Shown in pieces: positions 1 through 17,410 of a stretch of 64,000 nucleotides of DNA. Made by a program: the position numbers and the translations under genes. Location of the stretch: NCBI GenBank assembly GCA_038522085.1, contig JBCBKJ010000008.1:23371-87370 (forward strand), given 5' to 3'. How positions within the stretch are numbered: position 1 is the first letter of the stretch; each line of letters begins with the position of its first letter. The stretch comes from Chloroflexota bacterium (GTDB taxonomy: Bacteria; Chloroflexota; Anaerolineae; Aggregatilineales; Phototrophicaceae). The notes beneath the pieces were generated by a model. The model saw only the letters and a program-made list of their open reading frames with translations, searched no databases and was not told the DNA's origin.

Positions 1-356
1 ATAAGCGCCGGAATCCCCATCATAGTCGCGTTGATGCCGAGTGTGGTCAATCCGCCATGCTGGAACATAACAGCCTGCAAGAATAGACCAACTAAAATCG
101 CTGGTACGGCATACCATCCCAATACAACACCCAGCAAGCCATTCAAGATGAGATGCACACTCGTTGGCGGAATCGGAATATGAATCGAAGATGCCACGAA
201 AAAGGTTGCCGTTAAAAGCGCAGCTTTCGGAACATTTTCGGTAGGGTCAATATTTTGTTTGTTGATTTGCCGGAGTGAGAATGCCGTCAGCGCACCGGCG
301 GCAACGTAGCCCCCTATGACTGCTTCAGGTGTGAGAATGCCGTCTGGAATGTGCAT
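1..356 (-). CDS. cbiM: CbiM/NikM-type metal (Co/Ni) ECF-transporter substrate component, N-terminal part; the gene continues past the 5' edge of the window
   Basis: Reverse-complement translation from the ATG at 356-354 gives MHIPDGILTPEAVIGGYVAAGAL...HGGLTTLGINATMMGIPAL. This has the hallmark Met-His-Ile-Pro-Asp-Gly N-terminus of the CbiM/NikM family followed by hydrophobic TM segments. It is not in the supplied ORF track because the ORF is truncated by the window edge. Confidence 0.75.
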   Translation of the reverse strand, partial: MHIPDGILTPEAVIGGYVAAGALTAFSLRQINKQNIDPTENVPKAALLTATFFVASSIHIPIPPTSVHLILNGLLGVVLGWYAVPAILVGLFLQAVMFQHGGLTTLGINATMMGIPAL

Positions 357-386
357 AATTGTATCCTTCGCGTATGCGTGTGTTGC

Positions 387-1067
387 TTATGCTTTGCTTT
401 TGCCCCGTGAAAAATAAAGTGCTGTACCGATGAGTCCCCAAATGACACTGCCTATCATAACCGCTTGTTGGAGTGGTGTCAGCCCATCTGTGATACCTCC
501 ACCAGAGCTTGACGACACAATCGTGGATGGAGCTTCTGTATTATCTGTGTTTGTATCAGCGTCAGCTAGTGTTTCTGCTTCGGTACTTTCACCCGTATTG
601 AATGTTACTACATCACCTTCTACAGTGAAATCGCTTGTCCCACTGATAGTAACCTCTGTACCATCCGAAAGTGTTACCGTTGTCGTATCCTCAGCATCTG
701 TTTCAGCAGGCACGGCAGAAGGGTCTGGCATCATATCAGCCGTGATTTCGATGTTCACTAAGCCACCGTGTCCGGCTTTGCGCACCTGAACATCCCAGAA
801 GCCTTCAATTTCGTAATCTGGCATGAAGGTATACGAGCCATTTTCATCTGCAACGCCGACTTGCCAAGGATTGATGAGGTCGTTGGGTGCAAAAATAACA
901 ACTTGCCCGTCATTGAGGGCTTCGCCTGTGTCAAATTCTGCGGTGACAGTAACTTCGCCTGTCACATTATCAATAGTATGTGAAATGCGTACGCCATGCG
1001 CTAGAACAGGCACGGCGTACAACATCACGATACTCACTACGCTTAATATAGTTGCGAGTTTTCTCAT
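387..1067 (-). CDS. Secreted protein with a C-terminal membrane anchor; predicted mature N-terminus HGVRISH. Candidate periplasmic or membrane accessory component of the adjacent CbiM/NikM transporter
   Basis: 226 aa. Signal peptide MRKLATILSVVSIVMLYAVPVLA followed by HG. Acidic Thr/Asp-rich middle region. C-terminal hydrophobic helix (AVMIGSVIWGLIGTALYF) followed by SRGKSKA. AGGAG RBS 11 nt upstream. Only 30 nt from the cbiM start on the same strand. Confidence 0.7.
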   Translation of the reverse strand: MRKLATILSVVSIVMLYAVPVLAHGVRISHTIDNVTGEVTVTAEFDTGEALNDGQVVIFAPNDLINPWQVGVADENGSYTFMPDYEIEGFWDVQVRKAGHGGLVNIEITADMMPDPSAVPAETDAEDTTTVTLSDGTEVTISGTSDFTVEGDVVTFNTGESTEAETLADADTNTDNTEAPSTIVSSSSGGGITDGLTPLQQAVMIGSVIWGLIGTALYFSRGKSKA

Positions 1068-1092
1068 GTAGCTTAAATGCTCCTATGCGTTT

Positions 1093-1893
1093 TTATTGCA
1101 ATGACGCTTCGTGGCAGTGACCTTCACCTACGTGACCCAATGAAGGCAGTACATTAACGAAGGTCACATACTCTTCTTCTGTCAGGCTCATTTCGAGGTC
1201 AGCGAGTGTGACATCGAGTACGCCATCGCTTGCCAATGGTGCAAGCATATCGAAACCTGGGGCTTCTGCGTTGAGTGAATCATCGAGTGGTGTTTCTGCA
1301 TCGCCAAAGATATGGTCGAAGTGGAACGTCAACTCAACATCGCCCATTGCACCTGCTTCTACGATACCTTTACGTTCGTCACCAACAAATGCGCCACAGG
1401 TATAGGCAAAAATTTCTTCAATTTTCACGAGAAATTCAACAGTTTCACCATCTTTGGAGGCTGTCCCATCCATCACAACGGTGAAACCTTCGTATTCACC
1501 TTCGGTAGCTGGTGTCATCATCCATGTGACAGCATTATAAAAGCCTGCGGGTGCATCTTCATAAGTATCAATCAGAATGGTATCTGCGTCTGCATCGCCT
1601 TCTGCAAGGTCAATGAAACGTTGGTCTGCTAAACCGACCATCACATCGCTACGTACCAATTCCCCTGCAAATGGGTCATATGGTGGTGTTGTTTGGTGTG
1701 CGCGAATAGCAGACACCGATACATAAACGTGTTCAAAATCAATTTGCCAACCGTCTTTAGAGACAAAGCCCTGACGTACAAAATCTTCACCGTTCGCACG
1801 GAACTCTAGTGTTCCGGTTTCCATTTCGTCCTGCGCGAATGTAACAGACAGCCCTAAGACGAAGATGAGAATGAGTAGAAGAACTTTTCGCAT
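1093..1893 (-). CDS. Secreted protein with a His/Cys-rich C-terminus (HVGEGHCHEA); putative periplasmic metal-binding protein, first gene of the cbiM-containing operon
   Basis: ORF 1093..1920. Start chosen at the internal Met (1893) that gives signal peptide MRKVLLLILIFVLGLSVTFAQ, with an AAAGGA RBS 9 nt upstream. C-terminal motif SLGHVGEGHCHEASLQ. AT-rich promoter-like region upstream (1921-2090). Confidence 0.65.
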   Translation of the reverse strand: MRKVLLLILIFVLGLSVTFAQDEMETGTLEFRANGEDFVRQGFVSKDGWQIDFEHVYVSVSAIRAHQTTPPYDPFAGELVRSDVMVGLADQRFIDLAEGDADADTILIDTYEDAPAGFYNAVTWMMTPATEGEYEGFTVVMDGTASKDGETVEFLVKIEEIFAYTCGAFVGDERKGIVEAGAMGDVELTFHFDHIFGDAETPLDDSLNAEAPGFDMLAPLASDGVLDVTLADLEMSLTEEEYVTFVNVLPSLGHVGEGHCHEASLQ

Positions 1894-2090
1894 ATGGTAG
1901 TATCCTTTTGAGTAGTTCAAATTTATACAAATTACTTACAAGTAGCAAGTGTTGCACATGTAAATTATTACATCAAGCCATGTGGACAGTTCTTAAGCTA
2001 ATCATTATACTTTCCTCGCGTTAGATAAGCCGACTTTATGAAACCACAACGAAACCAATACACAATAGTGTCAAAGAGCATGTATTTCCT

Positions 2091-3770
2091 ATGACAATGA
2101 CAGATAACAGCAATAAGAATGATTCGATTGAAGTCCGTTTAGAGCCTTGGATAGACCGTGCTGAATATATTATCGGGCTGACCATTATTATTATGGCGTG
2201 GAGCGCCGGCTGGGTTGATTTGTTCGCGTTCGAGAGCTTCTCAACGCAGGTATTCGGGCGCTACTCGTATTCATTATTTGCCTTCCTCGTTGTCTTCACA
2301 TTGATGTTTGGGTTTTGGTTATGGCTCATTATTTCAATTAAGGCATTAGATGGGCTACGAAGTTTCCTCGCATTTATGCAACGCTCTCCCCTGTTAGTGC
2401 TAGTGGTGTACATCGGTGTTTTTGGCATCCTGTATTCCATGACGATTGTAAAATACTGGTCGAACTTCACACTCATGCAGGGCATGATACTTACGATTAT
2501 GCTTGTATTCACGGTATTTCTGTTATTCACAAATATGGGTGAAGCACAAATATGGCGTAAGGTTATATGGGGCATTTTAGGCGTGTTCCTGCTTATTGAA
2601 GGCGGAATGCACGCGCTGGCATCACTAGGGACATTACCAGTAGAAAACACGACAGGCATGTATCAGTCCTATGGGCGTGTATACACAACAGGCGAACAGT
2701 CTGTGTATGCTACAACGAATCGCTATGGCTGGTATTATCCTGAGTTTGTCATAGACGATGAAAATTACAACATTGTCCTGAATGGTGATACCTTCATACG
2801 GGGCTTGGAAGTCGGCTATGATGACTTATTGGGTACGCAATTACAAGCACAATTTGAGGGTGACGAAACACAAATCATGCCCATGGGTCAGCCAGGTTTT
2901 GGGGCAAATACTTACCTGAGTACAGAATTTTATGGTTTCATCTGGGAAACGATGCAAGCTGATGAGATGGTAATTTTTGTGCATCTGGCAAATGATTTTC
3001 AGGTTGAGGAAGGGTCGCTAGGTGAGCGTCCTTCTTATGATATAAGAGATGATGGTATCACGATACTGCATCCTGACGATGATATTTTCCAGCATGTGAT
3101 TCATCACGTTATATTTGAAGGGCATCAACCGCTCATATTAATTGAGGTTATCATGAGTCACTCGTTCGTTGTGACGATGATTGAAGATGCGATTGCCAGT
3201 ACGAGACCGGACTTAGCTCCTTATGAATTGCACGCCCCCGTAAATGATTGGGAGCGTGAGCGTGTACCGCAGTATACGGTTGCTATGCCAATTGAATCAC
3301 GCACCGAGGATATGCCTTTCGGTACAGGCACTTTCTTGTTTGAGGTGGATGGTAGCGAGCGTGCAGATGAAAGCTATAAAATCTTGTTTGACCAAATAGC
3401 GATTTTGCGGGCAAGGCTAGAGGAACAAGGGATTTCAATACGTGTCGTGACGATTCCATTTTTCCCAGAAGCCTTCTATGAAACGCAATCAGGTACGAAT
3501 TGGGGTACAGAACTAGATGCCACTTACGATATTTTGTTACCAGAAGTACGCCTGACTGAGTATGCTAATGATGCTGGTATTCCGATTCTGGCGATGGGTG
3601 AATACATGTTTGAGACAGGTATGGATGTGAGTGATATTCAAGCCCTGTTCTTTGAAAATGGTAGTGGTGCATTCACCCCAGCCGGACATGCTTATTTTGC
3701 TGAGGCAGTATTTGGCTGTTTCTATGCAGAGATAACATCCGAAGCGACTGCTTGCTATTCAGACGATTGA
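2091..3770 (+). CDS. Polytopic membrane protein of unknown function with a large C-terminal soluble domain; first gene of the NRPS operon
   Basis: 559 aa. About 5-6 predicted TM helices in the first ~190 aa, then a ~370-aa non-membrane domain with His-rich patches (HVIHHVIFEGHQP) and a C-terminal segment with weak SGNH/DltD-like resemblance (NGDTF...PAGHAYFAEAV). Its TGA stop overlaps the ATG of the next gene (ATGA at 3768-3772). Confidence 0.6.
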   Translation: MTMTDNSNKNDSIEVRLEPWIDRAEYIIGLTIIIMAWSAGWVDLFAFESFSTQVFGRYSYSLFAFLVVFTLMFGFWLWLIISIKALDGLRSFLAFMQRSPLLVLVVYIGVFGILYSMTIVKYWSNFTLMQGMILTIMLVFTVFLLFTNMGEAQIWRKVIWGILGVFLLIEGGMHALASLGTLPVENTTGMYQSYGRVYTTGEQSVYATTNRYGWYYPEFVIDDENYNIVLNGDTFIRGLEVGYDDLLGTQLQAQFEGDETQIMPMGQPGFGANTYLSTEFYGFIWETMQADEMVIFVHLANDFQVEEGSLGERPSYDIRDDGITILHPDDDIFQHVIHHVIFEGHQPLILIEVIMSHSFVVTMIEDAIASTRPDLAPYELHAPVNDWERERVPQYTVAMPIESRTEDMPFGTGTFLFEVDGSERADESYKILFDQIAILRARLEEQGISIRVVTIPFFPEAFYETQSGTNWGTELDATYDILLPEVRLTEYANDAGIPILAMGEYMFETGMDVSDIQALFFENGSGAFTPAGHAYFAEAVFGCFYAEITSEATACYSDD

Positions 3771-4933
3771 TGAGTGCGCCGATGATGAATTTGCATTTTA
3801 CGGATGAGCAACAAGCCTTATGGGATAATATTGTTGCATTTGTTGGTACATCGCTGGATTTAGAAAACACGGTTGAAGCCGATAAACAAGGTGTTTTCAG
3901 CCACGAGAATTGGCGAGCGATTGCACAAAAAGGCATTCTTGGCTACTCTTTTGAAACTGCCTACGGTGGCACAGATTATGATATGGTCACGTCGATGGTG
4001 GCAACCGAAGCCTTGGGCTATGCGTGCCACGATAACGGTTTGCTACTCGCGGTCAACGGACAGATGTGGTCAGTACAATCGACATTGAGTCAATTTGCAA
4101 ATGATGAGCAAAAAGAACGCTATCTCAAACCACTCATTGAAGGCACAAAATTTGGCGCACACGGAGTAACAGAACCAGATTATGGGTCGCATGTTTTTGG
4201 GATGCAAACTCATGCTGAAAAAGTCAATGGCGGCTATGTGCTGAATGGCAAAAAAGCCTATGTTGGGCTTGCGCCAATAGCGGATGTAATTCTTGTTTAC
4301 GCGACGACTAATCCTGATTTAGGGTCATGGGGTATCACTGCATTTATAGTGGATGGTGACAGTGAAGGCATTCAAGCCAGTGCGCCAGCAGAAACAATGG
4401 GACTACGTACAACCGTCTTGGGCAGCATCATGTTTGAGAATGTCTTCGTGCCAGAAGAGAATATTTTAGGCAAAGTCGGTGCAGGTGCGAGCATATTCAA
4501 CAAGAGTGTCGAGCGCGAACGGTGTCTCGGCTTTGGTAGCCACGTTGGAGCGATGCGTCGGCAATTAGAGGCGACAATTGCCTATGCAAAAGGACGTAAA
4601 CAAGGCGACCAACCAATCAGCAAGTATCAAGCAGTATCACACAAAATTGCCGATATGCGCGTGCGTTTGGAGACATCACGCTTATTGCTGTATCAGTGTG
4701 CATCGCTGATAGATACAAATCAGCCGATTACTATGGCATCCGCGATAGCCAAATTGACTATCAGCGAAAATTTTGTTGCGAATAGTATGAACGCTTTGCG
4801 GATACACGGTGCGTATGGCTATCTCTCGGAAAGCGAAGTCGAACGGGATTTACGCGATTCGCTGGGTGGTATTATTTACGTCGGCACATCGGATATTCAA
4901 CGAAACATCATTGCAGGTCTACTGGAGTTATAA
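3770..4933 (+). CDS. Acyl-CoA dehydrogenase family protein; likely acyl/aminoacyl-S-carrier-protein dehydrogenase of the NRPS cluster
   Basis: ACAD fold motifs (GVTEPDYGSHVFGMQT..., C-terminal IYVGTSDIQRNIIAG). ORF track starts at a TTG at 3752; the first ATG at 3770 overlaps the upstream stop (translational coupling), so that start is used here. The stop TAA lies 2 nt before the next ATG. Confidence 0.85.
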   Translation: MSAPMMNLHFTDEQQALWDNIVAFVGTSLDLENTVEADKQGVFSHENWRAIAQKGILGYSFETAYGGTDYDMVTSMVATEALGYACHDNGLLLAVNGQMWSVQSTLSQFANDEQKERYLKPLIEGTKFGAHGVTEPDYGSHVFGMQTHAEKVNGGYVLNGKKAYVGLAPIADVILVYATTNPDLGSWGITAFIVDGDSEGIQASAPAETMGLRTTVLGSIMFENVFVPEENILGKVGAGASIFNKSVERERCLGFGSHVGAMRRQLEATIAYAKGRKQGDQPISKYQAVSHKIADMRVRLETSRLLLYQCASLIDTNQPITMASAIAKLTISENFVANSMNALRIHGAYGYLSESEVERDLRDSLGGIIYVGTSDIQRNIIAGLLEL

Positions 4934-4935
4934 AT

Positions 4936-6528
4936 ATGGAATTTTTGCTACACAAAGGCATGGACGTAACCGCAGAGCTTTTCCCAGATAAGCCTGTGAT
5001 GCGTTATTTAGACACGCAGTTGACCTATTCAGAGCTATCACAACGTAGCAATCAACTTGCAAATTTCTTGGAAGAACGTGGCTCACAACGTCGTGACCGC
5101 CTCGGCATTTTTCTCAATAAGAGCCTCGAAACATCTATCGCCGTATATGGCATTATGAAATCCGGCGGGGCGTTTATTCCGCTTGACCCCCAATCACCAA
5201 AATCACGCTTGCTGGATATTATCCGCAAGACAGGCATGAAGTGTGTGATTAGCCAGCCGGATAAGAAGAAAATCCTTGCGCAGGTTGCAGAAGAAGAGTC
5301 GCCGCTGGAATACGTCATCGGTATTGATACAGATGATGATATTGGCGTGCCGACCTACTCATGGGATGATGTCGCGCAATTTCCTGATAATACGATGCCT
5401 GATTTGCATTTGATTCAAGATGACCTCGCTTATATTTTGTTCACGTCAGGGTCTACTGGCGCACCCAAAGGTATGATGCACACACATGCAACAGGCATGA
5501 GTTATGTGCATATGTCTACTGATTTGTACGATGTGCGTCCTGATGATGTGTTAGGCAATCATTCGCCCCTACATTTTGATATGTCTACCTTCGAGTATCT
5601 AACGGGTCCTAATATCGGGACAACGACGATAGTTGTGCCAGAATCATACACGCTGTTCCCTGCCAATTTAACGCAGTTGATGCAAGATGAGCGTATGACA
5701 TTCTGGTACAGTGTGCCATTTGCGCTAATTCAGATTGTATTGCGTGGCGTACTAGAAAAACGTGATTTGTCGAGCTTCCGCTGGATTATGTACGGTGGCG
5801 AACCCTTCCCACCGAATTATTTAGCCGAGTTGATGAAGCATCTACCCAATGCACAAATCAGCAATGTATATGGTCCAGCCGAGACGAACCAAGTCAGCTA
5901 TTATACGATTCCTGACCCTGACACATGGGTTGACCCCGAAGCGAATATGCCAATCGGGACATTTGTACCGAATCTTGAGGGCTTGGTACTAGACGACGAT
6001 GATTCGATTGTTGAAGACGGTGAAGTTGGCGAGTTAGTCGTTCGCACACCACGCATGACCAAAGGCTATTGGGGACGTCCCGATTTGAATGCACGGGTTT
6101 TCTTCCGGCGCGAAATTATGCCTGATTTTGAGGAAGTATACTATCGCACTGGCGACCTAGTAAAATTGCGTGATGATGGTCTGTACGATTTCTTGGGTCG
6201 CAAAGACCATCAAGTGAAAGTGCGCGGGTATCGTGTTGAATTGCTAGAAGTTGAAAATGCGATGGCAAGCCACGATGCCGTTGAAGAAGGTGCAGCGTAT
6301 GCACTCAAAAATGACGATGGTAGCGATTATATCGAAGTTGCTGTGATTGTCGCTAAAGAAGCTACGCTGACAGTAGATGAGTTAATTGCACACATGAATG
6401 ACCGTCTGCCCCATTACGCTGTGCCTAGCAAGGTGAAGTTCATGGATAGCTTCCCGCGCACCGGCTCGGATAAAGTAGACCGCCGAGGTTTACAAGCAAT
6501 GGCAATGGAAGAAAAGAACAATTCGTAA
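4936..6528 (+). CDS. Stand-alone adenylation (AMP-binding) enzyme; starter-unit activating enzyme
   Basis: Core motifs LAYILFTSGSTGAPKG (A3), YRTGDLVKL (A8), GRKDHQVKVRGYRVELLEVE (A9/A10 region). 530 aa, typical A-domain size. Start ATG 2 nt after the ACAD stop. Confidence 0.9.
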   Translation: MEFLLHKGMDVTAELFPDKPVMRYLDTQLTYSELSQRSNQLANFLEERGSQRRDRLGIFLNKSLETSIAVYGIMKSGGAFIPLDPQSPKSRLLDIIRKTGMKCVISQPDKKKILAQVAEEESPLEYVIGIDTDDDIGVPTYSWDDVAQFPDNTMPDLHLIQDDLAYILFTSGSTGAPKGMMHTHATGMSYVHMSTDLYDVRPDDVLGNHSPLHFDMSTFEYLTGPNIGTTTIVVPESYTLFPANLTQLMQDERMTFWYSVPFALIQIVLRGVLEKRDLSSFRWIMYGGEPFPPNYLAELMKHLPNAQISNVYGPAETNQVSYYTIPDPDTWVDPEANMPIGTFVPNLEGLVLDDDDSIVEDGEVGELVVRTPRMTKGYWGRPDLNARVFFRREIMPDFEEVYYRTGDLVKLRDDGLYDFLGRKDHQVKVRGYRVELLEVENAMASHDAVEEGAAYALKNDDGSDYIEVAVIVAKEATLTVDELIAHMNDRLPHYAVPSKVKFMDSFPRTGSDKVDRRGLQAMAMEEKNNS

Positions 6529-6559
6529 GCACATTTAGCAATACAGAGGAAAAACAACT

Positions 6560-6802
6560 GTGGAAGCACAAGCAAAGCTGAAACAATTCATCGAAGACGA
6601 ATTGCTCATTGGGCGCGATGTTGACCTTGAATATGATGACAATTTGCTCATTAGTGGCTTGGTCAACTCATTGGCGATTATGCGCTTGGTGAGTTTTGCA
6701 GAAGAACTTTACGAAGTAGAGATACCAGCCGAAGAAATCACTATCGAGAACTTCATCAGCATTAGTGCGATGAACACCTATCTGCAAACGCTCAAAAACT
6801 AA
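6560..6802 (+). CDS. Small acyl/peptidyl carrier protein (phosphopantetheine-binding)
   Basis: 80 aa, acidic, four-helix pattern with the putative Ppant serine in ISGLVNSLAIMRLV (GxxSL-like). GTG start preceded by an AGAGGA RBS. Located between the A enzyme and the NRPS. Confidence 0.75.
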   Translation: MEAQAKLKQFIEDELLIGRDVDLEYDDNLLISGLVNSLAIMRLVSFAEELYEVEIPAEEITIENFISISAMNTYLQTLKN

Positions 6803-6813
6803 ACCATACCCCT

Positions 6814-9800
6814 ATGACTAGCTCAATTCCATACGACACAAGCAATCTGACCAATGCACAGCAACTTATGTGGATTGGTCAGCAGTTGCAACCTGATGTA
6901 CCGCTTTACAATATGATGCAGACCTTTATCATACATGGCAATATAGATGTTGATGTCTTTACACAAGCGTTTGAAACCTTGGTCGCACAGTCAGAGAACA
7001 TGCGCCTATCTATCGAAGTCATAAATGACATTCCGATAGGACGTACCGATAGCACGAGCAAAAACGTCGTAGCGTTTTATGACTTTACCCAAGAAAGCGA
7101 CCCGCAAAGCCATTTTGACAACTGGTTGGATATACGACGCGGTCTGCGCTTTGATTTATCAGGTCAACTATATGATTGTGCTTTGATAAAGCTAGGTGAT
7201 GCACACTTTGTATGGTACTTGGCAATGCACCATATCATCACAGACGCAACGGCTTTTAAGCTGATATTTGAGCAAGTCAGTGATTATTACCTACGCCTCA
7301 AAGAGGGTGAATCGCTTAACTTAGCAGGCGAGGCATTACCACAGCATGCCGACTACAAAACGTATGAACAACTAGTTATCGAGAGCAAATCTCATGCAAA
7401 AGCGCGAGCATACTGGCAACAGCAGTTAGCGCATGAAGTCGAGCCAATTCGCTTTTATGCTCCTCAAGATGCCACTGATAAAACAGCATCTGTGCGCGTC
7501 AATGTACCGCTTGCTGATACCACGTGTGAAGCACTCGTAAACTACATTGAGAATGCACCTATCCGCAGTTTCAGCAAAGATTTGATAACCGCAAATGTAT
7601 TTGCTAGTTTGTTATTTTCGTATTTATATCGCATCAGTGGGCATAATAACCTGCGTTTGGGTATGCCATTAGCAAATCGAAGCACACCACAGTTTACACA
7701 GACGATAGGCGCGTTCATTGAAGTGTTATCACTGACATTAGATATTGCTGATGATGATAGCTTTGAAGATGTATTGCGCAAAGTCAACAAGGTAAATCTG
7801 AAAACACTCCAGCATTTATTGCCAGCCGTGAGTAGTGCTGAACACACGCATGCTTATGATGTGGTGATGAATTTCATCCCCTTGCATTTTAGTGATTTCG
7901 CGGAAATGCCAACTGAGGTTGCATGGGTACATTGCGGGCATGGTGACGCCAATCATAAACTCAATGTGCAGATTTATGATATGAATAACACGGGGCATTA
8001 TCAATTTTTCTTCGATTTCAACACGGATATATTCAATGCAGATGACCGTGCGCGTGCAATGACACATTTTGAAGCTGTCATTGAACAATGTATCGCTTCG
8101 CCACAAATCCCGCTATCAGACATTGATTTACTGACATCCGCCGAAAAAGAGGCTTTCTTAGGCGCTTTCAATGCGACAGATACACCTTATCAAGCAGATG
8201 CAACAATTGTTGACCTATTTGAAGCACAAGTTGCAAAAACACCGACTGCTATTACTGTCGTTGATAGCGAACGGCAACTCACCTACGCTGAATTGAACGG
8301 CAAAGCAAATGCTCTAGCACATGAGTTACAGTCGGTTGGTATTCGTACAGAGACATTTGTACCTGTTTGTATGCACCATAGCATTGACCTCGTAGTGGCT
8401 CTGTGGGGCATTCTAAAAGCAGGCGGCGTCTATGTTCCGCTTGACCCACAATATCCGACAGAACGTATGCAATATATTCTGGATGATATAGGTGATGTGC
8501 CGCTGATTATCACCGATGCCGAGCTTGAGGAGCAATTCACTGACATTGGCACAAAAACACGTATTGTTGATGCCGATAGTGTATCACTGCTAGATGACTT
8601 CACACATGATGTAACCCCTCAATCACTGGCTTATGTAATTTACACATCTGGGTCTACAGGCAATCCAAAAGGCGTGTTAGTAGAACATGATGGGCTAAGT
8701 AATTATGTTCAATGGGCAAGCAAACATTATGTACCAGATACTGCCGCTACATTTGCGCTGTACTCGTCGTTGGCGTTTGATTTGACTGTTACCTCTATCT
8801 ACGTGCCTTTGGTGACGGGGGGTAGTATTCGTGTGTATTACGATGCTGAAAACACAGGCACAGTCATTCGGGATATTTTCATCGACGCCGCCGTTGATGT
8901 TGTGAAGCTGACACCATCACATTTAGAACTCGTGCGCGATTTAGATTTATCCGCTACACGCATCAAACGTTTGATTGTAGGTGGGGAAGATTTCAAAGTA
9001 TCGCTGGCAAGGGCAATACATGATACTAGTGCCGGAAATATCGTACTTTTCAACGAGTATGGTCCAACTGAGGCGACAGTTGCTTGCATGTTGCACCAGT
9101 TCGATGCAAAAGGTGATACACAGGAATCCGTGCCAATTGGGACACCTGCTGACAATATGCGCGTTTATGTGCTGGACAAGCATCTGAAACCTGTGCCAAC
9201 GGGCATAGTCGGCGAAATGTATTTGTCGGGCGTAGGGGTAGCGCGTGCATATCTCAATCGTGACGTATTGAGCGCAGAACGCTTTTTGCCTGACCCCTTC
9301 GACAGCACACGACACATGTATAAATCTGGTGATTTGGCACGCTGGTTGCCGGATGGCACACTCACATTTCTGGGGCGTGCAGATAGACAGGTGAAATTAC
9401 GCGGGTATCGCATTGAACTCGGTGAAATTGAAGGACAACTCCATTCTATTTCAGGCGTGGAATCCGCGACGGTGGTAGTGCGGACTGAGCAACTTATTGG
9501 CTACTACGTGGCTGATGAGGCTATCACGGCTGAGATAGTAACATCGTATTTGAGTGAGCGCCTCCCCTCTTATATGATACCGACGCATGTGGTGCGCTTG
9601 GATGCAATGCCTCTGACAATCAACGGGAAAGTTGATTACGATGCCCTGCCAGATATTGTTTCAGGGAATGTAGATGGACATTCTGCTTACGTTGCACCCG
9701 AAAATGATGTGCAAGCAACGGTAGCGCATATCTGGCAAACAATTTTGCAGATTGAGCAAATTGGCATTCACAGTAATTTCTTCGATATTGGTGGACACTC

Positions 9801-9993
9801 CTTACCAGCGATTCGCGTTACCGGACGCATCAATGCTTATTTTGATATTGATATGCCACTAAAAACCTTCTTCACCAATCCAACCATTGCCGGTCAAGCA
9901 GATGCTATTGAACGCATTGTAAAAACAGAAATTGACGCGCTCAGTGATGACGAGGTTTTTCGTTTGCTGGAGGCAATAGACTATGGCGGATAA
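6814..9993 (+). CDS. Non-ribosomal peptide synthetase module 1 (C-A-T)
   Basis: Condensation His motif HHIITDATAF (HHxxxD). A domain: LAYVIYTSGSTGNPKG, YKSGDLARW, GRADRQVKLRGYRIELGEIE. Thiolation: FFDIGGHSLPAIRV. No E, MT or TE domain seen. Confidence 0.95.
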   Translation: MTSSIPYDTSNLTNAQQLMWIGQQLQPDVPLYNMMQTFIIHGNIDVDVFTQAFETLVAQSENMRLSIEVINDIPIGRTDSTSKNVVAFYDFTQESDPQSHFDNWLDIRRGLRFDLSGQLYDCALIKLGDAHFVWYLAMHHIITDATAFKLIFEQVSDYYLRLKEGESLNLAGEALPQHADYKTYEQLVIESKSHAKARAYWQQQLAHEVEPIRFYAPQDATDKTASVRVNVPLADTTCEALVNYIENAPIRSFSKDLITANVFASLLFSYLYRISGHNNLRLGMPLANRSTPQFTQTIGAFIEVLSLTLDIADDDSFEDVLRKVNKVNLKTLQHLLPAVSSAEHTHAYDVVMNFIPLHFSDFAEMPTEVAWVHCGHGDANHKLNVQIYDMNNTGHYQFFFDFNTDIFNADDRARAMTHFEAVIEQCIASPQIPLSDIDLLTSAEKEAFLGAFNATDTPYQADATIVDLFEAQVAKTPTAITVVDSERQLTYAELNGKANALAHELQSVGIRTETFVPVCMHHSIDLVVALWGILKAGGVYVPLDPQYPTERMQYILDDIGDVPLIITDAELEEQFTDIGTKTRIVDADSVSLLDDFTHDVTPQSLAYVIYTSGSTGNPKGVLVEHDGLSNYVQWASKHYVPDTAATFALYSSLAFDLTVTSIYVPLVTGGSIRVYYDAENTGTVIRDIFIDAAVDVVKLTPSHLELVRDLDLSATRIKRLIVGGEDFKVSLARAIHDTSAGNIVLFNEYGPTEATVACMLHQFDAKGDTQESVPIGTPADNMRVYVLDKHLKPVPTGIVGEMYLSGVGVARAYLNRDVLSAERFLPDPFDSTRHMYKSGDLARWLPDGTLTFLGRADRQVKLRGYRIELGEIEGQLHSISGVESATVVVRTEQLIGYYVADEAITAEIVTSYLSERLPSYMIPTHVVRLDAMPLTINGKVDYDALPDIVSGNVDGHSAYVAPENDVQATVAHIWQTILQIEQIGIHSNFFDIGGHSLPAIRVTGRINAYFDIDMPLKTFFTNPTIAGQADAIERIVKTEIDALSDDEVFRLLEAIDYGG

Positions 9994-12900
9994 CACGCAG
10001 ACCATTACCATCGAGGAGGCACGGCGCAAACTACTTGAATATCGGTTACAGGGTAAATCTCTCAATCAAGCCTCTGCTCTCAAGGCAATTCCACCTGTAC
10101 CAGACGATGTAGACCCGCCAACTACCTACGGTCAGCAAGGGATGTGGCTGATACAGCAATCTCAGCCGGATGCTGTACCATACAATTCAGCGAACATTAT
10201 GCGCCTTGAAGGCATGCTGTATACAGATGTATTCAAGCGTGCTGTACAGATAGTCATTGAGCGCCACGCTGTCTTTCGGACGAATTTCGTGCTGGCAGGT
10301 GACGCGATTGTGCAAAGCGTCCGTGATAGTATCGAGGATATTGTTTCTGTAGAGACGATTACCCCCGCGCAACGTGACGATGCCATAGCACGGTATATCG
10401 ACACGCCGTTTGATTTGGCGAATGATGTGTTACTACGTGTCGGCATTTTACGAGAAAGCGAACAAGCCTATACGATTGTCATTTGTGCGCATCACATTAT
10501 TGTGGATAATTGGTCGCTGACTGTATTGTTATGGCAAGAGATTAGCGATAGCTACCAAACCTTGATAACCAACCAACCGATGGATTTGCCAACTATCGAA
10601 GCACAGTATGCTGATTATACCTATTGGCAACGACAAAAAGAATCTACAGAGGCATATCAGAAACAACTTGCGTACTGGCAAAATCAGCTTGCAGATGCCC
10701 CTCCTCTGTTGCAGTTACCCACAGATAGACCACGCCCAGCGAAACAACAATACGATGGCGAAGTCGTTTACATGTATTTGGATGAGGCACTATCTGCACA
10801 GATACACACACTAAGCCGTGATGCCAAAAGCACGCTGTTTGTCACTTTGCTGAGTGCGTACTATGTGTTGCTCAGTCGCTACACCGCACAAGATGATATT
10901 AGCGTGGGTACATCGGTAGATATGCGCACACATCCACAACTAGAGAATACGATTGGCTATTTCTTGAATACGGTGGTTCTGCGCGAAAATATAAAGCCTG
11001 AGCTATCTTTTGGTTCATTACTAACAAAAGTGCGCGATACAACACTGTCTGCCTTTGCGAATCAAAATGTGGAATTTGAGCAAGTCGTCGAAAAATTAGG
11101 TATCGGACGCAATAGTGGGTTCAATCCGCTATTTCAGACGATGTTTGTGATGTGGAACGAAACTTCCTCTGCGCCAAAGATACCGACCTTCACTATGACA
11201 CCCCAACAAGTACATCCTAGTGCATCGAAGTTTGATATATCTTTTTATGCACAGCCGGAGCGCGATGGGCGCATTTTGGTAGCCATTGAATATGCGACCC
11301 ACTTATTCGATAAGGCAACCATAAAACGCATGCAGGGGCATTATAAGACGATTTTGCGCTCTGTGGTCGCTGAACCAGAGACAGCTATTAAAGATATTCG
11401 CTTGTTGACACATGCAGAAAATCAACTGCTGTTAGAGACATGGACAGACACAGCCCAAGATTATCCACGCGAAAAACTTGTACATGACCTTATTGCTGAA
11501 AACCCAGCCGACGCTATCGCAGTATGGGACGAAAGCGGTCAATTGGCATACGGGGAGTTGAACGCACGCGCCAATCAGATTGCGCATCACTTAGTTACAT
11601 TGGGTATCACAGCTGGTACACCCATTGGCATTTGTCTCGAACGTAGCCATGAGATGCTAATTAGCATTGTAGCGATACTAAAAGCGGGGGGTGCCTATGT
11701 ACCCATTGACCCTTCTTATCCGCAGGAACGCATCGAAACCATTGTTGCAGATGCAGGTATCAACATCATTTTGACGCAATCGCACTTGGAAACAACATTG
11801 GCTGACCGCGCACAACATACTATCACGATTGATGATAGCGAGGCGTTCGCTGATTACCCGACAACGCTACCTGATACAGAGGCAACACCCGACACGCTAG
11901 CGTATATCATTTACACAAGTGGTTCGACAGGCAAGCCTAAAGGGGTACGCATCACACATCGTAACCTCGTGCATTCAACAACAGCGCGTGAAAGTGTGTA
12001 TCCACTTCAAGTAGAGCGATTTTTGTTGTTGTCGTCATTTGCCTTTGATAGTTCGCTGGTTGGCATCTTCTGGACATTATGCGGAGGTGGAACGCTCTGT
12101 TTGCCACCACAAGATGCTGAAAAAGATGTCACACGGATTGCCGAATTGATTGCACAGTACAGCATTACGCATTTGTTGGCATTGCCGTCTTTGTATCAAA
12201 TCTTGCTTGAATTTGCCGATGATAATCAACTCGCGTCGTTGAATACCGTTATGGTTGCTGGCGAAGCCTGCCCGATTGCACTGGTGCGGACACATTACGA
12301 GCTTTTGCCGGATGCCACGCTCTGGAACGAATATGGTCCGACAGAAGGCACAGTTTGGTCAAGTGTGTGGGAAGTGCCAGCCGACACCGACAAAATGCTT
12401 ATCGGAAAAGCCATTCCCAATATGCAAACCTATATTTTGGATAGCCAGCAAGTGCCTGTGCCTGTCGGGGTATATGGGGAGGTGTACATCGGCGGTGAAG
12501 GTATCGCACAGGGCTATCACGAGCGTCCCGATTTGACTGCCGAGCGTTTTATTGGCAATCCCTTTGGTACAGGACGTTTATATCGTACAGGGGATATTGC
12601 ACGGTATCTTACAGATGGCAATATTGAATTTGCTGGACGCGATGACAATCAGGTGAAAATTAGCGGATACCGTATTGAGCTAGGTGAAGTGGAGAATGCG
12701 TTCTCACGCTTAGATGCTGTTCAACATGTTGTGGTCGTCGTGCGTGAGATAGCAGGTCAAAAACGCTTGGTCGCCTTTGTATCGACGACAGAAACTGCAA
12801 CTAGTGATGATATTCGTCAGCAAGTGCGCCCGACCTTGCCTGCTTACATGATTCCCACACATATTGAAATTCTTGACGCCTTGCCACGTAATCCGAATGG

Positions 12901-14050
12901 TAAACTTGACCGCAAAGCATTAGAAACATATCCGATTGCACGTGCTGATAACGCACCTGTATCCGCAAAAGCAACCAACGATGTTGAAAAGCAACTACTG
13001 ACTATCTGGCAAGAATTGTTGGGAGCTACTGTGCCGAGTGTCGATGCTGATTTCTTTGAATTAGGGGGCTATTCCCTACTAGCAATTCGGATGTTTGCGC
13101 GCATCAAGCAAGCATTTGATGTGGAGTTACCCATTTCACTGATTATGGAATCACCTACTATTCGCGGTCTGGCAGAGACAATTGCACAAGATGGCATCGG
13201 CGAGAAAACACTTTTCACGCTGGTAGTTGAAGGCGATAAACCGCCGTTGTATTGCTTGCAAGTGAACAAATTTGGCTTGATTCATTACCAGACATTAGCA
13301 CAACAATTGAATGCGAATCGTCCCGTGATTGGCTTGGGTTTGCCAGATGCTCTCGATACGGCGGAAACAACTATCGAGGAAGTTGCCGAACATAATGCAA
13401 GAACGATACTTGCCCATCAAACCGAAGCGCCATTTTACATTGCTGGACTGTCTGTTGCTGGGCTGGTCGCTTATGAAACAGCACGCAAATTAAAGTCAGA
13501 CGGTCATGAGGTATATGTCATCTTATTTGACACACAAGGACCCGATTATCCAACACGCATTGCGCCAATGGATGCAATCAGGAAACGTGCTGGCATCATG
13601 TGGCATCAATTAACGACGTGGGATGGAACAGCACGCGATGAACTCATCGGCTATTGGCGCTGGCTATTGGCATATCGACTGGGGTATCAGGTACAGAAAC
13701 GCAGTAATTGGGTACGCGCAAAACTCGGTTTGCCTGTGGTGACATCAGATGACCAAGAATTTAGGAATGCCATTGATAGCGATGCTATCCAAGCACAGAT
13801 AGATGCCTATTTTGCAGGCAATCGCGCTGATGACATACCGATTTTGCTCTATCGCAGTCATTTGCAACCCATCACCAGCGAACCAGAGTGGGCGCTTGGC
13901 TGGGATAAATTTGTGCCAGAAAATCATATTGATGTGCATCATGTGGGGGCGCCACATACAGATTTACTGAAATCGCAGTATATCAATCAAATTGTGACGC
14001 ATTTGCGCGATTGGCTTACTGAGAAAGACAGCTCACACAAGCAAAAATAA
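9983..14050 (+). CDS. Non-ribosomal peptide synthetase module 2 with terminal thioesterase (C-A-T-TE)
   Basis: Start overlaps the module-1 stop. C: HHIIVDNWS. A: LAYIIYTSGSTGKPKG, YRTGDIARY, GRDDNQVKISGYRIELGEVE. T: FFELGGYSLLAIRM. C-terminal alpha/beta-hydrolase TE with GLSVAGLVAYETARKL (GxSxG). Confidence 0.95.
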   Translation: MADNTQTITIEEARRKLLEYRLQGKSLNQASALKAIPPVPDDVDPPTTYGQQGMWLIQQSQPDAVPYNSANIMRLEGMLYTDVFKRAVQIVIERHAVFRTNFVLAGDAIVQSVRDSIEDIVSVETITPAQRDDAIARYIDTPFDLANDVLLRVGILRESEQAYTIVICAHHIIVDNWSLTVLLWQEISDSYQTLITNQPMDLPTIEAQYADYTYWQRQKESTEAYQKQLAYWQNQLADAPPLLQLPTDRPRPAKQQYDGEVVYMYLDEALSAQIHTLSRDAKSTLFVTLLSAYYVLLSRYTAQDDISVGTSVDMRTHPQLENTIGYFLNTVVLRENIKPELSFGSLLTKVRDTTLSAFANQNVEFEQVVEKLGIGRNSGFNPLFQTMFVMWNETSSAPKIPTFTMTPQQVHPSASKFDISFYAQPERDGRILVAIEYATHLFDKATIKRMQGHYKTILRSVVAEPETAIKDIRLLTHAENQLLLETWTDTAQDYPREKLVHDLIAENPADAIAVWDESGQLAYGELNARANQIAHHLVTLGITAGTPIGICLERSHEMLISIVAILKAGGAYVPIDPSYPQERIETIVADAGINIILTQSHLETTLADRAQHTITIDDSEAFADYPTTLPDTEATPDTLAYIIYTSGSTGKPKGVRITHRNLVHSTTARESVYPLQVERFLLLSSFAFDSSLVGIFWTLCGGGTLCLPPQDAEKDVTRIAELIAQYSITHLLALPSLYQILLEFADDNQLASLNTVMVAGEACPIALVRTHYELLPDATLWNEYGPTEGTVWSSVWEVPADTDKMLIGKAIPNMQTYILDSQQVPVPVGVYGEVYIGGEGIAQGYHERPDLTAERFIGNPFGTGRLYRTGDIARYLTDGNIEFAGRDDNQVKISGYRIELGEVENAFSRLDAVQHVVVVVREIAGQKRLVAFVSTTETATSDDIRQQVRPTLPAYMIPTHIEILDALPRNPNGKLDRKALETYPIARADNAPVSAKATNDVEKQLLTIWQELLGATVPSVDADFFELGGYSLLAIRMFARIKQAFDVELPISLIMESPTIRGLAETIAQDGIGEKTLFTLVVEGDKPPLYCLQVNKFGLIHYQTLAQQLNANRPVIGLGLPDALDTAETTIEEVAEHNARTILAHQTEAPFYIAGLSVAGLVAYETARKLKSDGHEVYVILFDTQGPDYPTRIAPMDAIRKRAGIMWHQLTTWDGTARDELIGYWRWLLAYRLGYQVQKRSNWVRAKLGLPVVTSDDQEFRNAIDSDAIQAQIDAYFAGNRADDIPILLYRSHLQPITSEPEWALGWDKFVPENHIDVHHVGAPHTDLLKSQYINQIVTHLRDWLTEKDSSHKQK

Positions 14051-14797
14051 GCGCAATGGACGTTGTTTGCCATGATAGGCAATCGCACCCATAAATTGCT
14101 CGTTTATGTCGATATGATGCAAGTGCCATTTCAGCCTGTGCATATTGCTGAGACGCGGGTCAATGCGTGTGACGCGTGCTGGCTGGTATGATTTCAGCGT
14201 CACATCAAAAGCATCCAACGGGACACTTAATCCGCGTCCATCTGCTTTAATAAAAGACTCTTTTCGTGTCCAGCAGCGATAAAATGCACCGACTTGTTCA
14301 GCAGACGAGAGGCTAAAAAGTGCAGTCTGCTCTGCTGGTGAAAAATGATGTTTCGCAACTGTCATGAGGTCGGGCAGAGGCTTTATAGCTTCAATATCCA
14401 CACCTATATCTTGCTTACATATTGCAATTAAAACGCGTTCTTCTGAGTGCGATAAATTGAAGAAAATACGCTCTGTATCGAGATAAGGTTTATTATATTC
14501 ACTATACGAAAACGAAAGCATATTCGGTTCACGCTGGAGATAGTTACCAAGCAAGTATCGTAAAATACCCCTGCGGACAGTACCGCGTGCGCGTAGTTGG
14601 GGGGTGTAATAGCGTTGAACACGCTCTTTTTCTCCTACACTCAGCATAGGATACAAGCTATCAACAACACTTTTTGGCTGGTCGTGTGTAAATTGCCAGA
14701 TGTGAATGCTGTCATCAAGCGGCGGTCTGGTATGTACAGATTGCCAATATTCTGTATCAGTATCTGTAATGGGTTGCCATACAAGGGGCAATTGCAT
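14033..14797 (-). CDS. Sfp-type 4'-phosphopantetheinyl transferase
   Basis: PPTase motifs FNLSHSEERVLIAI...IGVDIEAI and WTRKESFIKADGRGL (W/KEA motif). ORF extends to 14950. The start is placed at the internal Met (MQLPLVWQ, 14797), which has an AGGTGA RBS and avoids overlapping the divergent lipoprotein gene. The 3' end overlaps the NRPS stop by 18 nt (convergent). Confidence 0.8.
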   Translation of the reverse strand: MQLPLVWQPITDTDTEYWQSVHTRPPLDDSIHIWQFTHDQPKSVVDSLYPMLSVGEKERVQRYYTPQLRARGTVRRGILRYLLGNYLQREPNMLSFSYSEYNKPYLDTERIFFNLSHSEERVLIAICKQDIGVDIEAIKPLPDLMTVAKHHFSPAEQTALFSLSSAEQVGAFYRCWTRKESFIKADGRGLSVPLDAFDVTLKSYQPARVTRIDPRLSNMHRLKWHLHHIDINEQFMGAIAYHGKQRPLRLFLLV

Positions 14798-14897
14798 CGT
14801 GTTATCACCTACTAAACGAAATGAGCTATCCACTTCATATGTTTTGTACATCATGTTAGCATATGCCAGCGCAAGTAAGATAAGGAGTATGTAATAC

Positions 14898-15560
14898 GTG
14901 CAACGCTGGATATGGATGTGCCTATTCATTTTATGTGCATGTGGTGGCACAGGCGAGGATATTATCGAAATTGATTATGAAGGCGACCTCGTTGCGTATG
15001 CAACAGAAGCATCGCAAATACGCGAGGATATTGTTATCAGCCGTACTGATATTGCGTCTACAGTGGAAGCGGGCAATGCTCAAACATCACAATTTGAGCG
15101 TTACAATGACTTGTTACGCAGTACGGTTGTTGTTGCTATTCCGCCAACATCCGATGCGCGTATTGTAGCGAATGATACGATTGGCGCGCTCCCCGTTGAA
15201 GTATATGATTTGTCTGATGGCGAGATGCGCTTTGTGCAGATTGGTCCGGCTGGAGAAATTAATGATGAAAATTGCTTCATCGCCAAACAACAGTTTTTCA
15301 GAACGGATTCAGTTGCTGTATTCATGACAGCAGTCGCGCTTAATTTGCGTGCAGGTACAACAGTTAGTGCTGAGTGGCGCTATGGTGGGGAGCTTGTATA
15401 TTCTAATTCATGGGTCGCACCACAATCCGTACCCTATCAGTGTGTTTCCTTAACAATGCGCCCATCTGATGCTGAGTTTGCGACAGGGAATTGGACGGTC
15501 ACGCTGTTTGTAAATGGCAACCCTGACGAACCCAAGTCCTTCACCATTTTCAGCAACTAG
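14898..15560 (+). CDS. Hypothetical lipoprotein
   Basis: 220 aa. N-terminal MQRWIWMCLFILCACGGTG, a lipobox-like L-C-A-C after a hydrophobic stretch. No recognisable catalytic motifs. Confidence 0.55.
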   Translation: MQRWIWMCLFILCACGGTGEDIIEIDYEGDLVAYATEASQIREDIVISRTDIASTVEAGNAQTSQFERYNDLLRSTVVVAIPPTSDARIVANDTIGALPVEVYDLSDGEMRFVQIGPAGEINDENCFIAKQQFFRTDSVAVFMTAVALNLRAGTTVSAEWRYGGELVYSNSWVAPQSVPYQCVSLTMRPSDAEFATGNWTVTLFVNGNPDEPKSFTIFSN

Positions 15561-17317: not shown

Positions 17318-17324
17318 AGCAAAC

Positions 17325-17359
17325 AGTGGAATAAGCGTGTATGCTCATTCCACTTTTTA
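17325..17359 (+). terminator. Rho-independent terminator-like hairpin
   Basis: agtggaat-(14 nt)-attccact stem followed by TTTTT, directly after the stop of the 15617..17317 gene and in a convergent gap. Confidence 0.5.
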
Positions 17360-17410
17360 CTTATGGGGCGCAGACACAGCTACGACCCTAGGATGCCTCT
17401 TAGCAGGCGA

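Follow-up and report, generated by a model that had tools for sequence, protein, structure and literature searches.

Positions 1–1976 of the analyzed window (a 64-kb stretch of genomic DNA), read on the minus strand, have been identified with high probability as the first half, promoter included, of a NikK3-NikL2-NikM-Nik(QO) operon, which would encode a nickel importer of the group-I ECF type in a Chloroflexota (Anaerolineae-like) bacterium. As judged from its sequence, this operon is an ordinary member of a type of nickel importers known since 2009. By homology and synteny, NikM is its membrane S component, in which both Met1-His2 and the pocket histidine of the metal site of solved NikM2 are retained; the fused NikQ-NikO is the T component and ATPase; and NikK3 and NikL2 stand in for NikN/CbiN. 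For the latter two proteins we infer metal binding and a relay mechanism of transfer to the membrane component. The features of the locus are listed in Table 1.

Table 1. Features of the nik locus within the window.
Feature	Coordinates	Strand	Evidence
nikM, 5' part (cbiM family; S component of ECF transporter)	1..356	minus	Pfam CbiM (PF01891), E 9.4e-40
nikL2, 226 aa	387..1067	minus	BLASTP to Lyngbya NikL2, motifs
nikK3, predicted secreted beta-sandwich protein, 266 aa	1093..1893	minus	BLASTP to Lyngbya NikK3, motifs
Putative nik operon promoter	1948..1976	minus	Block conserved among nine Anaerolineae-type loci

Gene Content and Order of the Locus

The layout given by the original prediction, that is, a CbiM/NikM gene at the window start with genes of two secreted proteins upstream of it in the same orientation and separated by gaps of 25–30 nt, is present on the minus strand, the intergenic gaps of nikK3-nikL2-nikM being 25 and 30 nt. 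The window holds the first 118 codons of nikM, starting at 356 (MHIPDGILTPE...), and the rest of the gene lies beyond the window start. The upstream ORF is open from TTG at 1920, which yields the 275 aa proposed earlier, but the likely start is ATG at 1893, yielding 266 aa; AAGGA is found 9 nt 5' of this start codon, and gene callers assign 266 aa to the product on public copies. The nikK3 product ends with ...LGHVGEGHCHEASLQ.

Beyond the window, on the same contig (copy L001), the remaining part of nikM is followed by genes for a fused CbiQ-CbiO protein, a regulator of the Fur family, HupE/UreJ, and an exporter of the CDF type. The regulator gene occupies 12913–13338 of L001. The CbiQ/CbiO-like genes, for which the original prediction pointed outside the window, are found there straight after nikM, fused into one 501-aa ORF (CbiQ-ABC), and hence both dedicated components of a group-I ECF transporter, T (CbiQ) as well as A (ABC ATPase), are encoded in the same operon. 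Three further loci (L005, L006, and L007) have the identical gene order, and no CbiN-family gene is seen among the called genes of these three and L001. The remainder of the 64-kb window is occupied by an NRPS cluster, housekeeping genes, and cell-wall genes.

The same arrangement recurs in other genomes. Out of 80 loci with a NikK3 gene, NikL2 is present in 75, NikM in 75, NikQ in 71, and NikO in 69, the NikL2 and NikM relatives being located on the same strand directly 3' of NikK3 in nearly all of the 75. As 75 of 80 loci hold all three genes, the NikK3-NikL2-NikM arrangement is not due to chance.

The full-length NikM (218 aa, from L001) is 48% identical to NikM of Synechococcus JA-3-3Ab (E 2e-64), and in an alignment with the solved NikM2 chains 4m58/4m5b its M1-H2 coincides with M1-H2 of these chains and its H68 with their pocket His.

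Assignment of the Predicted Secreted Proteins to NikK3 and NikL2

In BLASTP comparisons, NikK3 is 52% identical to Lyngbya ZP_01622757.1 over 241 residues (E 2e-92), and NikL2 matches Lyngbya ZP_01622756.1 with E 1e-33 at about 30% identity, with a linker gap. The NikK3 and NikL2 subtypes were defined by Zhang, Rodionov, Gelfand, and Gladyshev (2009; PMC2667541), who record NikK3L2MQO systems from both cyanobacteria and deltaproteobacteria and whose supplementary sequences carry identical LGHVGEGHC, HGV.../AGHGG, and TM motifs. The assumption that the two proteins are accessory components of a Ni/Co ECF system agrees well with these data, the families being NikK3 and NikL2. The further suggestion that their sequences are distinct from NikK/NikL proves correct with respect to the NikK1 (DUF4198) type only, as both proteins match NikK3/NikL2.

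An assignment of NikK3 to classical NikK1 (DUF4198) was considered and rejected, the hhalign probability between the NikK3 alignment profile and NikK1 being 0.5%. DUF4198 (PF10670) gives no match to NikK3 at E ≤ 1, and Prosthecochloris NikK1 matches the same model with E 4.8e-61. As NikL2 is at best distantly related to NikL1, scoring 29 bits (E 9e-07) with the NCBIfam NikL model of the HI1622 type (NF058648, cut-off 100 bits) and 38% hhalign probability with a NikL1 sequence, it has been filed as L2 rather than L1.

Only sub-threshold matches are obtained for both secreted proteins in Pfam and NCBIfam: DUF4382 (PF14321) on NikK3 with E 0.2 and 12.3 bits against the gathering cut-off of 25 bits, the above NikL match, and ExtJ with E 5.5e-4. 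Neither protein matches the CbiN, CbiQ, or CbiO families in these databases, consistent with the earlier statement that they do not resemble these components. Searches of the PDB with the NikK3 and NikL2 family profiles yield no meaningful sequence relative among solved structures. Homologues of NikK3 are labelled in NCBI records as DUF4382 domain-containing proteins and those of NikL2, mostly as hypothetical or carboxypeptidase-regulatory-like proteins, while the JGI labels are “nickel transport protein” or “ABC-type cobalt transport system substrate-binding protein.”

The lack of both above-threshold domains and solved relatives could fit the original prediction of novel, previously unrecognized periplasmic metal-capture components. 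This reading fails because NikK3 and NikL2, matched here at E 2e-92 and E 1e-33, had been named, with sequences in the supplement, by Zhang et al. (2009; PMC2667541), and the Synechocystis operon of this type was tested genetically in 2018 (PMC5904137); moreover, JGI already labels the homologues as nickel/cobalt transport proteins. We consider it extremely improbable.

As a discovery, the operon is minor: its type has had a name since 2009, and genetic data already support its role in nickel import. The practical value comes from NikK3 and NikL2 having neither a solved structure nor a passing Pfam/NCBIfam model: the invariant ligand candidates, the NikK3 model, and the Anaerolineae operator provide starting points for the biochemistry of NikN-less ECF nickel transporters, and the results would help to correct the annotation of nikK3 and nikL2 genes in Chloroflexota and cyanobacterial genomes.

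Metal Specificity

Genetic evidence identifies the operon type NikK3L2MQO as the high-affinity importer of nickel in Synechocystis (Gutekunst, 2018; PMC5904137). Deletion of sll0381-0385, where the whole operon was removed at once, abolished growth under NTA chelation of Ni and Co, with growth restored by Ni and not by Co, and left about one tenth of hydrogenase activity and undetectable urease (PMC5904137). In the literature searched, we have found no measurement of Ni(II) binding by any NikK3 or NikL2.

An importer of cobalt, or of both nickel and cobalt, rather than a nickel-specific one would agree with the match of the full-length S component to the NCBIfam equivalog NF004906, “cobalt transporter CbiM,” which is above the cut-off (289.8 bits, cut-off 205). 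It would also agree with the 64-kb window containing no nickel enzymes (urease, hydrogenase, NiSOD, CODH), and with the observation that a few NikK1ML1QO systems adjoining B12 genes or riboswitches may import Co (PMC2667541). Against it, all K3L2 systems carrying a NikM have been predicted as Ni systems (PMC2667541), and the Synechocystis deletion was rescued by Ni only, as described above. A cobalamin riboswitch is absent: no Rfam family is found in the whole window at the gathering score, nor in the leader (1850–2150) at E ≤ 10, in line with the original prediction of no B12 or NiCo riboswitch. Of the solved structures of Fur-family proteins, the one nearest to the adjacent regulator is Nur, the nickel-responsive repressor of Streptomyces coelicolor: its best PDB match is 3eyy (E 2.6e-19, 73 bits), compared with 64 bits for H. 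pylori Fur. Overall, cobalt or mixed specificity seems unlikely, and nickel is retained as the predicted substrate.

Candidate Metal-Binding Residues of NikK3 and NikL2

The N-terminus of NikK3 consists of MRK, a hydrophobic stretch, and TFA/QDE, resembling, by eye, a Sec signal, with a helix at 2–19 in the AF2 model; the mature protein would begin with Q21. No lipobox is found in any of the 50 closest homologues (Chloroflexota NikK3). An alignment of 54 sequences shows no variation at H191, D193, H194, H254, E257, H259, or C260, and C166 also belongs to the invariant set. The motifs containing most of them are nearly universal, with FHFDH present in 120 of 120 homologues and the C-terminal LGHxGEGHC, in 119 of 120.

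The NikK3 model is confident and has a beta-sandwich, MbnP-like fold. MbnP (PDB 7l6g), a periplasmic copper-binding protein of methanobactin operons, shows 12% identity to NikK3, with no match at the sequence level. Differences from MbnP include the absence from NikK3 of the WxW motif (the kynurenine precursor), the absence of an MbnH/MauG-like partner gene nearby (MbnH being a dihaem peroxidase), and the candidate ligands and presumed metal of NikK3, which are not those of MbnP.

The 226-aa NikL2 is organized as originally predicted: a predicted signal peptide ending with VLA is followed by HGVRISH as the predicted mature N-terminus, and the protein ends with a single TM helix (198–225) and a basic RGKSKA tail. 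Between them are an Ig-like beta-sandwich ectodomain (about 24–108, from His24) and a linker (about 110–195) that is acidic, rich in Thr, and unusually long. It exceeds the family median by about 60–80 residues, the lengths compared being 226 aa here and a median of 164.5 aa. The pLDDT of the AF2 model is 81, rising to >95 within the sandwich. Among 98 homologues, AGHG is found in all 98, the TM motif in 96, and [AGS]HG near the N-terminus in 91; accordingly, the His that had been placed at the first mature position (H24) is near-invariant, being about 90% conserved, and H100 of AGHG is invariant.

These residues bear on whether the two proteins bind metal at all. CbiN/NikN, which they replace, are thought from work on CbiMN to act on the S component and not as classical binding proteins. 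By analogy with the CbiN loop for CbiM, NikK3 and NikL2 could be structural or assembly partners that stabilize or gate NikM without binding metal, and their generic beta-sandwich folds, matched also by adhesins, pilins, and macroglobulin domains, are compatible with that. Yet the unvarying residues of NikK3 (four His and one or two Cys) and the conserved N-terminal His and H100 of NikL2 are typical Ni ligands, and the sole strong structural neighbour of NikK3 is a metal-binding protein. A purely structural role is therefore considered improbable, and we favor NikK3 and NikL2 as candidate metal-binding proteins.

Regulation

The putative nik promoter comprises the –35 box TTGATG (1976–1971) and a –10-like AACACT (1953–1948), with the palindrome TGTAATAATTTACA (1972–1959), of the TGTAA-N4-TTACA type, inside the spacer. 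When the sequences upstream of nine Anaerolineae-type loci are compared, this promoter block is the sole conserved stretch. In the 64-kb window, the exact palindrome is present once, which by itself is not significant; its support comes from the conservation across loci. Scanning of the window and L001 for further TGTAA-N4-TTACA copies yielded just the promoter copy and a one-mismatch match at the chance level. The short palindrome was missed by a repeat finder applied to the leader. A Fur-like ATAATGATTA noted by eye beside TATAAT at about 2000–2010 is not conserved in relatives and was dropped.

We consider the palindrome a candidate repressor operator, to which the neighbouring Nur-like regulator could plausibly bind, a link suggested by the proximity of the Fur-family gene; the palindrome is present also at loci having no adjacent Fur gene (L006). 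As with Nur, the regulator adjoins a nickel uptake system, but the candidate operator differs from the reported Nur box, TTGCAA-N5-TTGCAA.

Proposed Mechanism

In most descriptions, ECF transporters operate without solute-binding proteins. In the proposed mechanism, secreted NikK3 would capture Ni(II) outside the membrane via H191, H194, H254, H259, C260, and possibly C166. NikL2, held beside NikM by its C-terminal TM helix, would contribute a site formed by the amine and imidazole of the new N-terminal His and by His100 of the AGHGG hairpin. From NikK3 and NikL2, the metal could then be handed on to the Met-His site at the N-terminus of NikM, and its release into the cytoplasm would be powered by ATP hydrolysis by NikO. 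The operon is probably kept silent through the TGTAA-N4-TTACA operator within its promoter, the likely repressor being the Fur-family (Nur-like) protein encoded after the operon.

The complete scheme, with NikK3 genuinely binding metal outside the cytoplasm as the partner of an ECF transporter (MbnP-like fold, His4/Cys nickel site) and feeding an N-terminal-residue relay from NikK3 to the NikL2 His and to the NikM Met-His, and with a Nur-like repressor switching the Anaerolineae operon at TGTAA-N4-TTACA, is tentative, and we regard it as possible rather than probable. More remote is a variant where NikK3 would recognize nickel bound to the product of the neighbouring NRPS cluster.

Comparison With Other Transport Systems

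The closest described relatives are the cyanobacterial NikK3-NikL2-NikM-NikQ-NikO systems (Synechocystis sll0381-sll0385; Lyngbya ZP_01622755-57), which share the K-L-M-Q-O order and the motifs FHFDH and LGHxGEGHC (K3), [AG]/HGV, AGHGG, and WGxxGTALYF (L2), and MHI... (M). In contrast to them, NikQ and NikO are fused here into one ORF, the operon is followed by genes of the Fur-family regulator, HupE/UreJ, and CDF protein, and NikK3 has a plain predicted signal peptide, whereas a lipoprotein signal is common in cyanobacterial NikK3.

The NikK1-NikM-NikL1-NikQ-NikO systems (the Brucella ure2 locus, Desulfovibrio, Prosthecochloris) are likewise ECF nickel transporters without NikN, whose two extracytoplasmic partners are a soluble protein and a membrane-tethered one, and both NikK1 and NikL1 are predicted to begin with His once mature. 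Unlike the K-L-M order observed here, their gene order is K-M-L; NikK3 is unrelated to NikK1 in sequence, and NikL2 shows no more than marginal similarity to NikL1.

With the group-I ECF transporters CbiMNQO/NikMNQO (solved structures: NikM2 4m58/4m5b and CbiMQO 5x3x), the system shares the S, T, and A modules and the Met-His site, but CbiN/NikN is replaced by two unrelated extracytoplasmic proteins.

Identity and Gene Content of the nik Operon

The operon at the start of the window adds a new Chloroflexota representative to the known NikK3L2MQO systems. Its genes are co-oriented and separated by 25 and 30 nt, and the third one, cut by the window start, encodes a CbiM-family substrate (S) component, NikM (Pfam, E 9.4e-40). 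The original prediction recognized it as CbiM/NikM and accurately described the two proteins encoded before it: NikK3 has a signal-like sequence at the N-terminus and ends in ...LGHVGEGHCHEASLQ, while NikL2 reads VPVLA/HGVRISH in its N-terminal region and ends in a hydrophobic helix followed by RGKSKA. NikK3 was described as a 275-aa protein; its frame is indeed open upstream to TTG 1920, but the likely start at ATG 1893 yields 266 aa, the length also given by gene callers in four public copies of the locus. Rfam has no match in the window or in the operon leader, in agreement with the reported lack of a riboswitch.

Coordinates of features of the nik locus, its homologs and neighboring genes
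Feature	Sequence	Coordinates	Strand	Remarks
nikK3	window	1893..1093	minus	likely start ATG 1893, AAGGA 9 nt upstream; 266 aa
nikL2	window	1067..387	minus	226 aa
NikL2 linker	window	within 387-1067		residues ~110-195
nikM, 5' part	window	starts 356	minus	MHIPDG...; 118 codons, then cut by window start
Promoter block	window	1976..1948	minus	also upstream of nikK3 in L006, L007, L010, L011, L013, L014, L018
Palindrome in promoter block	window	1959-1972		TGTAATAATTTACA
Degenerate second copy	window	1926-1940		TGTAAGTAATTTGTA
NikQ-NikO fusion, ~500 aa	L001	11352-12857		just past window start
NikQ-NikO fusion, ~500 aa	L006	8158-9657
NikQ-NikO fusion, ~500 aa	L007	8173-9648
Fur-family regulator, permease, CDF exporter	L001	12913-15611		right behind importer genes
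Leader of nikK3	L005	5895-5955		more distant NikK3 locus
NRPS cluster	window	2091-14950		559-aa multi-TM protein, acyl-CoA dehydrogenase, stand-alone AMP-ligase, 80-aa carrier protein, C-A-T module, C-A-T-TE module; PPTase on opposite strand
SH3-domain proteins	window	15617-19576, 61135-63657		secreted

Looking up the exact protein sequence retrieved the same contig from a Logan assembly and from two Chloroflexota MAGs (L001, reaching past the window start). There, the full-length CbiM has 218 aa and is followed by a 501-aa ORF combining CbiQ (T component) and the ABC ATPase, so the downstream genes are cbiQ/cbiO-like, as expected of such a transporter in the original prediction. NikQ and NikO are fused in the clade of L001, L006 and L007 and separate in L005, and in most cyanobacterial loci the Q and O matches are separated by a gap. 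Next after the fusion in L001 are genes for a Fur-family regulator of 141 aa, a permease of the HupE/UreJ type and a CDF exporter, which has 526 aa and a long extension at its C-terminus; a CDF gene is seen again in L006, L009 and L018. Genes for transition-metal uptake and efflux are thus clustered.

ECF nickel transporters that lack NikN have accessory components, NikK and NikL, which have been split into K1–K3 and L1–L2, with NikK3L2MQO systems listed for cyanobacteria and some proteobacteria (Zhang, Rodionov, Gelfand, Gladyshev, BMC Genomics 2009, PMC2667541). The idea of NikK and NikL as periplasmic nickel-binding partners goes back to Rodionov et al. (2004). All three supplementary NikK3 sequences, from Lyngbya, Synechococcus JA-3-3Ab and Synechocystis (NP_442316), end in ...LGHVGEGHC..., and the NikL2 ones contain A/HGV..., ...AGHGG... 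and ...WGCxGTALFFS... (PMC2667541). In BLASTP, the window NikK3 matches that of Lyngbya with 52% identity (E 2e-92), NikL2 matches its Lyngbya counterpart with a single long gap at the linker (E 1e-33), and NikM has 48% identity to that of Synechococcus JA-3-3Ab (E 2e-64). Pfam and NCBIfam have no passing model for NikK3 or NikL2. NikK3 has no sequence relation to the classical NikK1 (Pfam DUF4198), and NikL2 is marginally related to NikL1 at most, which explains why both proteins had seemed distinct. The observation is confirmed and the proposed role as accessory components of a Ni/Co ECF-type transporter is right, but the suggested novelty is wrong, both families having been named in 2009. 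The locus shows four minor variations: NikQ and NikO are fused, NikK3 is not a lipoprotein, the linker of NikL2 is long, and there is a Fur-family regulator with a conserved candidate operator.

In Synechocystis, sll0381-sll0385, identified as NikK3L2MQO by Zhang et al., were deleted by Gutekunst et al. (2018; PMC5904137). The mutant did not grow when NTA chelated nickel and cobalt; nickel restored growth and cobalt did not, hydrogenase dropped to roughly a tenth, and urease could no longer be detected (PMC5904137). Cobalt or mixed specificity of the nik system is less likely than nickel specificity. Homology, synteny and these genetics in a homologous system support reading the window operon as an ECF-type nickel importer, with K3 and L2 in place of NikN.

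Distribution

NikK3 has more than 2,100 relatives in a 90%-clustered database (364 representatives at 50% clustering) and is encoded in at least 540 loci of the GTDB species set, mostly in Anaerolineae, Dehalococcoidia and filamentous cyanobacteria, with some in Bacillota. Among the best 80 of these loci, 75 have L2 and M homologs in the same orientation, in nearly every case immediately 3' of K3, and Q and O are found in 71 and 69, respectively. In a few genomes (L043, L049, L053, L076), neither NikL2 nor NikM is found within 5 kb of the NikK3 gene. Some relatives are tandemly duplicated, with two or three copies per polypeptide (P0219 of 748 aa; P0222, P0231 and P0242 of about 565 aa).

Conserved Residues and Possible Mechanism

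Invariant polar residues of NikK3 in 54 diverse sequences are C166, H191, D193, H194, H254, E257, H259 and C260; motifs FHxDH and GHxGEGHC are present in 120 and 119 of 120 homologs. The confident AlphaFold2 model (pLDDT 93.2, pTM 0.85) is mainly a beta-sandwich, followed by a C-terminal helix and the His/Cys segment. The fold is in common with MbnP, a periplasmic copper-binding protein whose site comprises His, Met and a kynurenine made by MbnH from Trp of a WxW motif. NikK3 has no WxW and its gene no MbnH-like neighbor; the MbnP site is not shared.

In NikL2, His follows the predicted signal-peptide cleavage site in 91 of 98 homologs, the TM motif WGxxGTALYF is found in 96, and H100 (AGHG) is invariant. 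In the model, residues 25-108 form an Ig-like sandwich of seven strands (pLDDT >95), followed by an acidic, largely disordered linker and a TM helix (198-225). As Ig-like sandwiches have the N-terminus and the F-G hairpin at one end, His24 and His100 could form one site. At 226 aa, the window NikL2 exceeds the family median of 164.5 aa, owing to its linker. The latter is Thr/Asp/Glu-rich and of low complexity, with a small predicted beta-hairpin (146-157), and is far longer in the window and close Anaerolineae relatives than in typical homologs of about 146-165 aa. NikM retains Met1-His2 and a His aligned to the pocket His of the solved NikM2.

An N-terminal amine with His is a recurring nickel ligand set, seen in NikM, the NiSOD Ni-hook and HypA, and the predicted first mature residue is His in both NikK1 and NikL1 of Prosthecochloris. 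A purely structural role of NikK3 and NikL2 seems less likely than metal handling. Ni(II) would be captured by the His/Cys cluster of NikK3, held at the N-terminal-His site of NikL2 tethered beside NikM, and taken from there into the N-terminal Met-His site of NikM, with translocation driven by the NikQ-NikO module.

Candidate Regulatory Site

Upstream regions of nine Anaerolineae-type loci have almost nothing in common except the block cTTG(A/T)TGTAAnAnnTTACATnTGCAATAnT, which can be read as a -35 hexamer and a -10-like hexamer whose spacer contains a 5-4-5 palindrome (TGTAA-N4-TTACA). The window has one exact copy of this palindrome, a count not significant by itself; support comes from the phylogenetic footprint. 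A degenerate second copy is also seen. A Fur-family gene is located 3' of the operon in six of the nine loci (seven with L008, the second copy of L007) and adjoins it in 21 of the best 80 of at least 540 genome loci. The best solved relative of this regulator is 3eyy (E 2.6e-19), the nickel-responsive Nur of Streptomyces coelicolor. It is a reasonable inference that a Nur-like repressor, encoded after the operon in several loci, could act at the candidate operator.

The L005 leader has a perfect TTGACA-17-TATAAT promoter followed by TTGCAA-ATAG-TTGCAA, resembling, spacing excepted, the reported Nur box; this element adjoins genes of a divergent DtxR-family regulator and feoABC.

Neighboring Genes

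A small NRPS cluster, divergent from the nik operon, looks like a lipo-dipeptide pathway; its 559-aa multi-TM protein has no Pfam or NCBIfam match. In Ca. Flexifilum affinis (L006), too, the nik operon is flanked by an NRPS cluster. Several large secreted proteins with bacterial SH3 domains, unrelated to the nik genes, include one with Peripla_BP_6 and CARDB and another with DUF4397 repeats.
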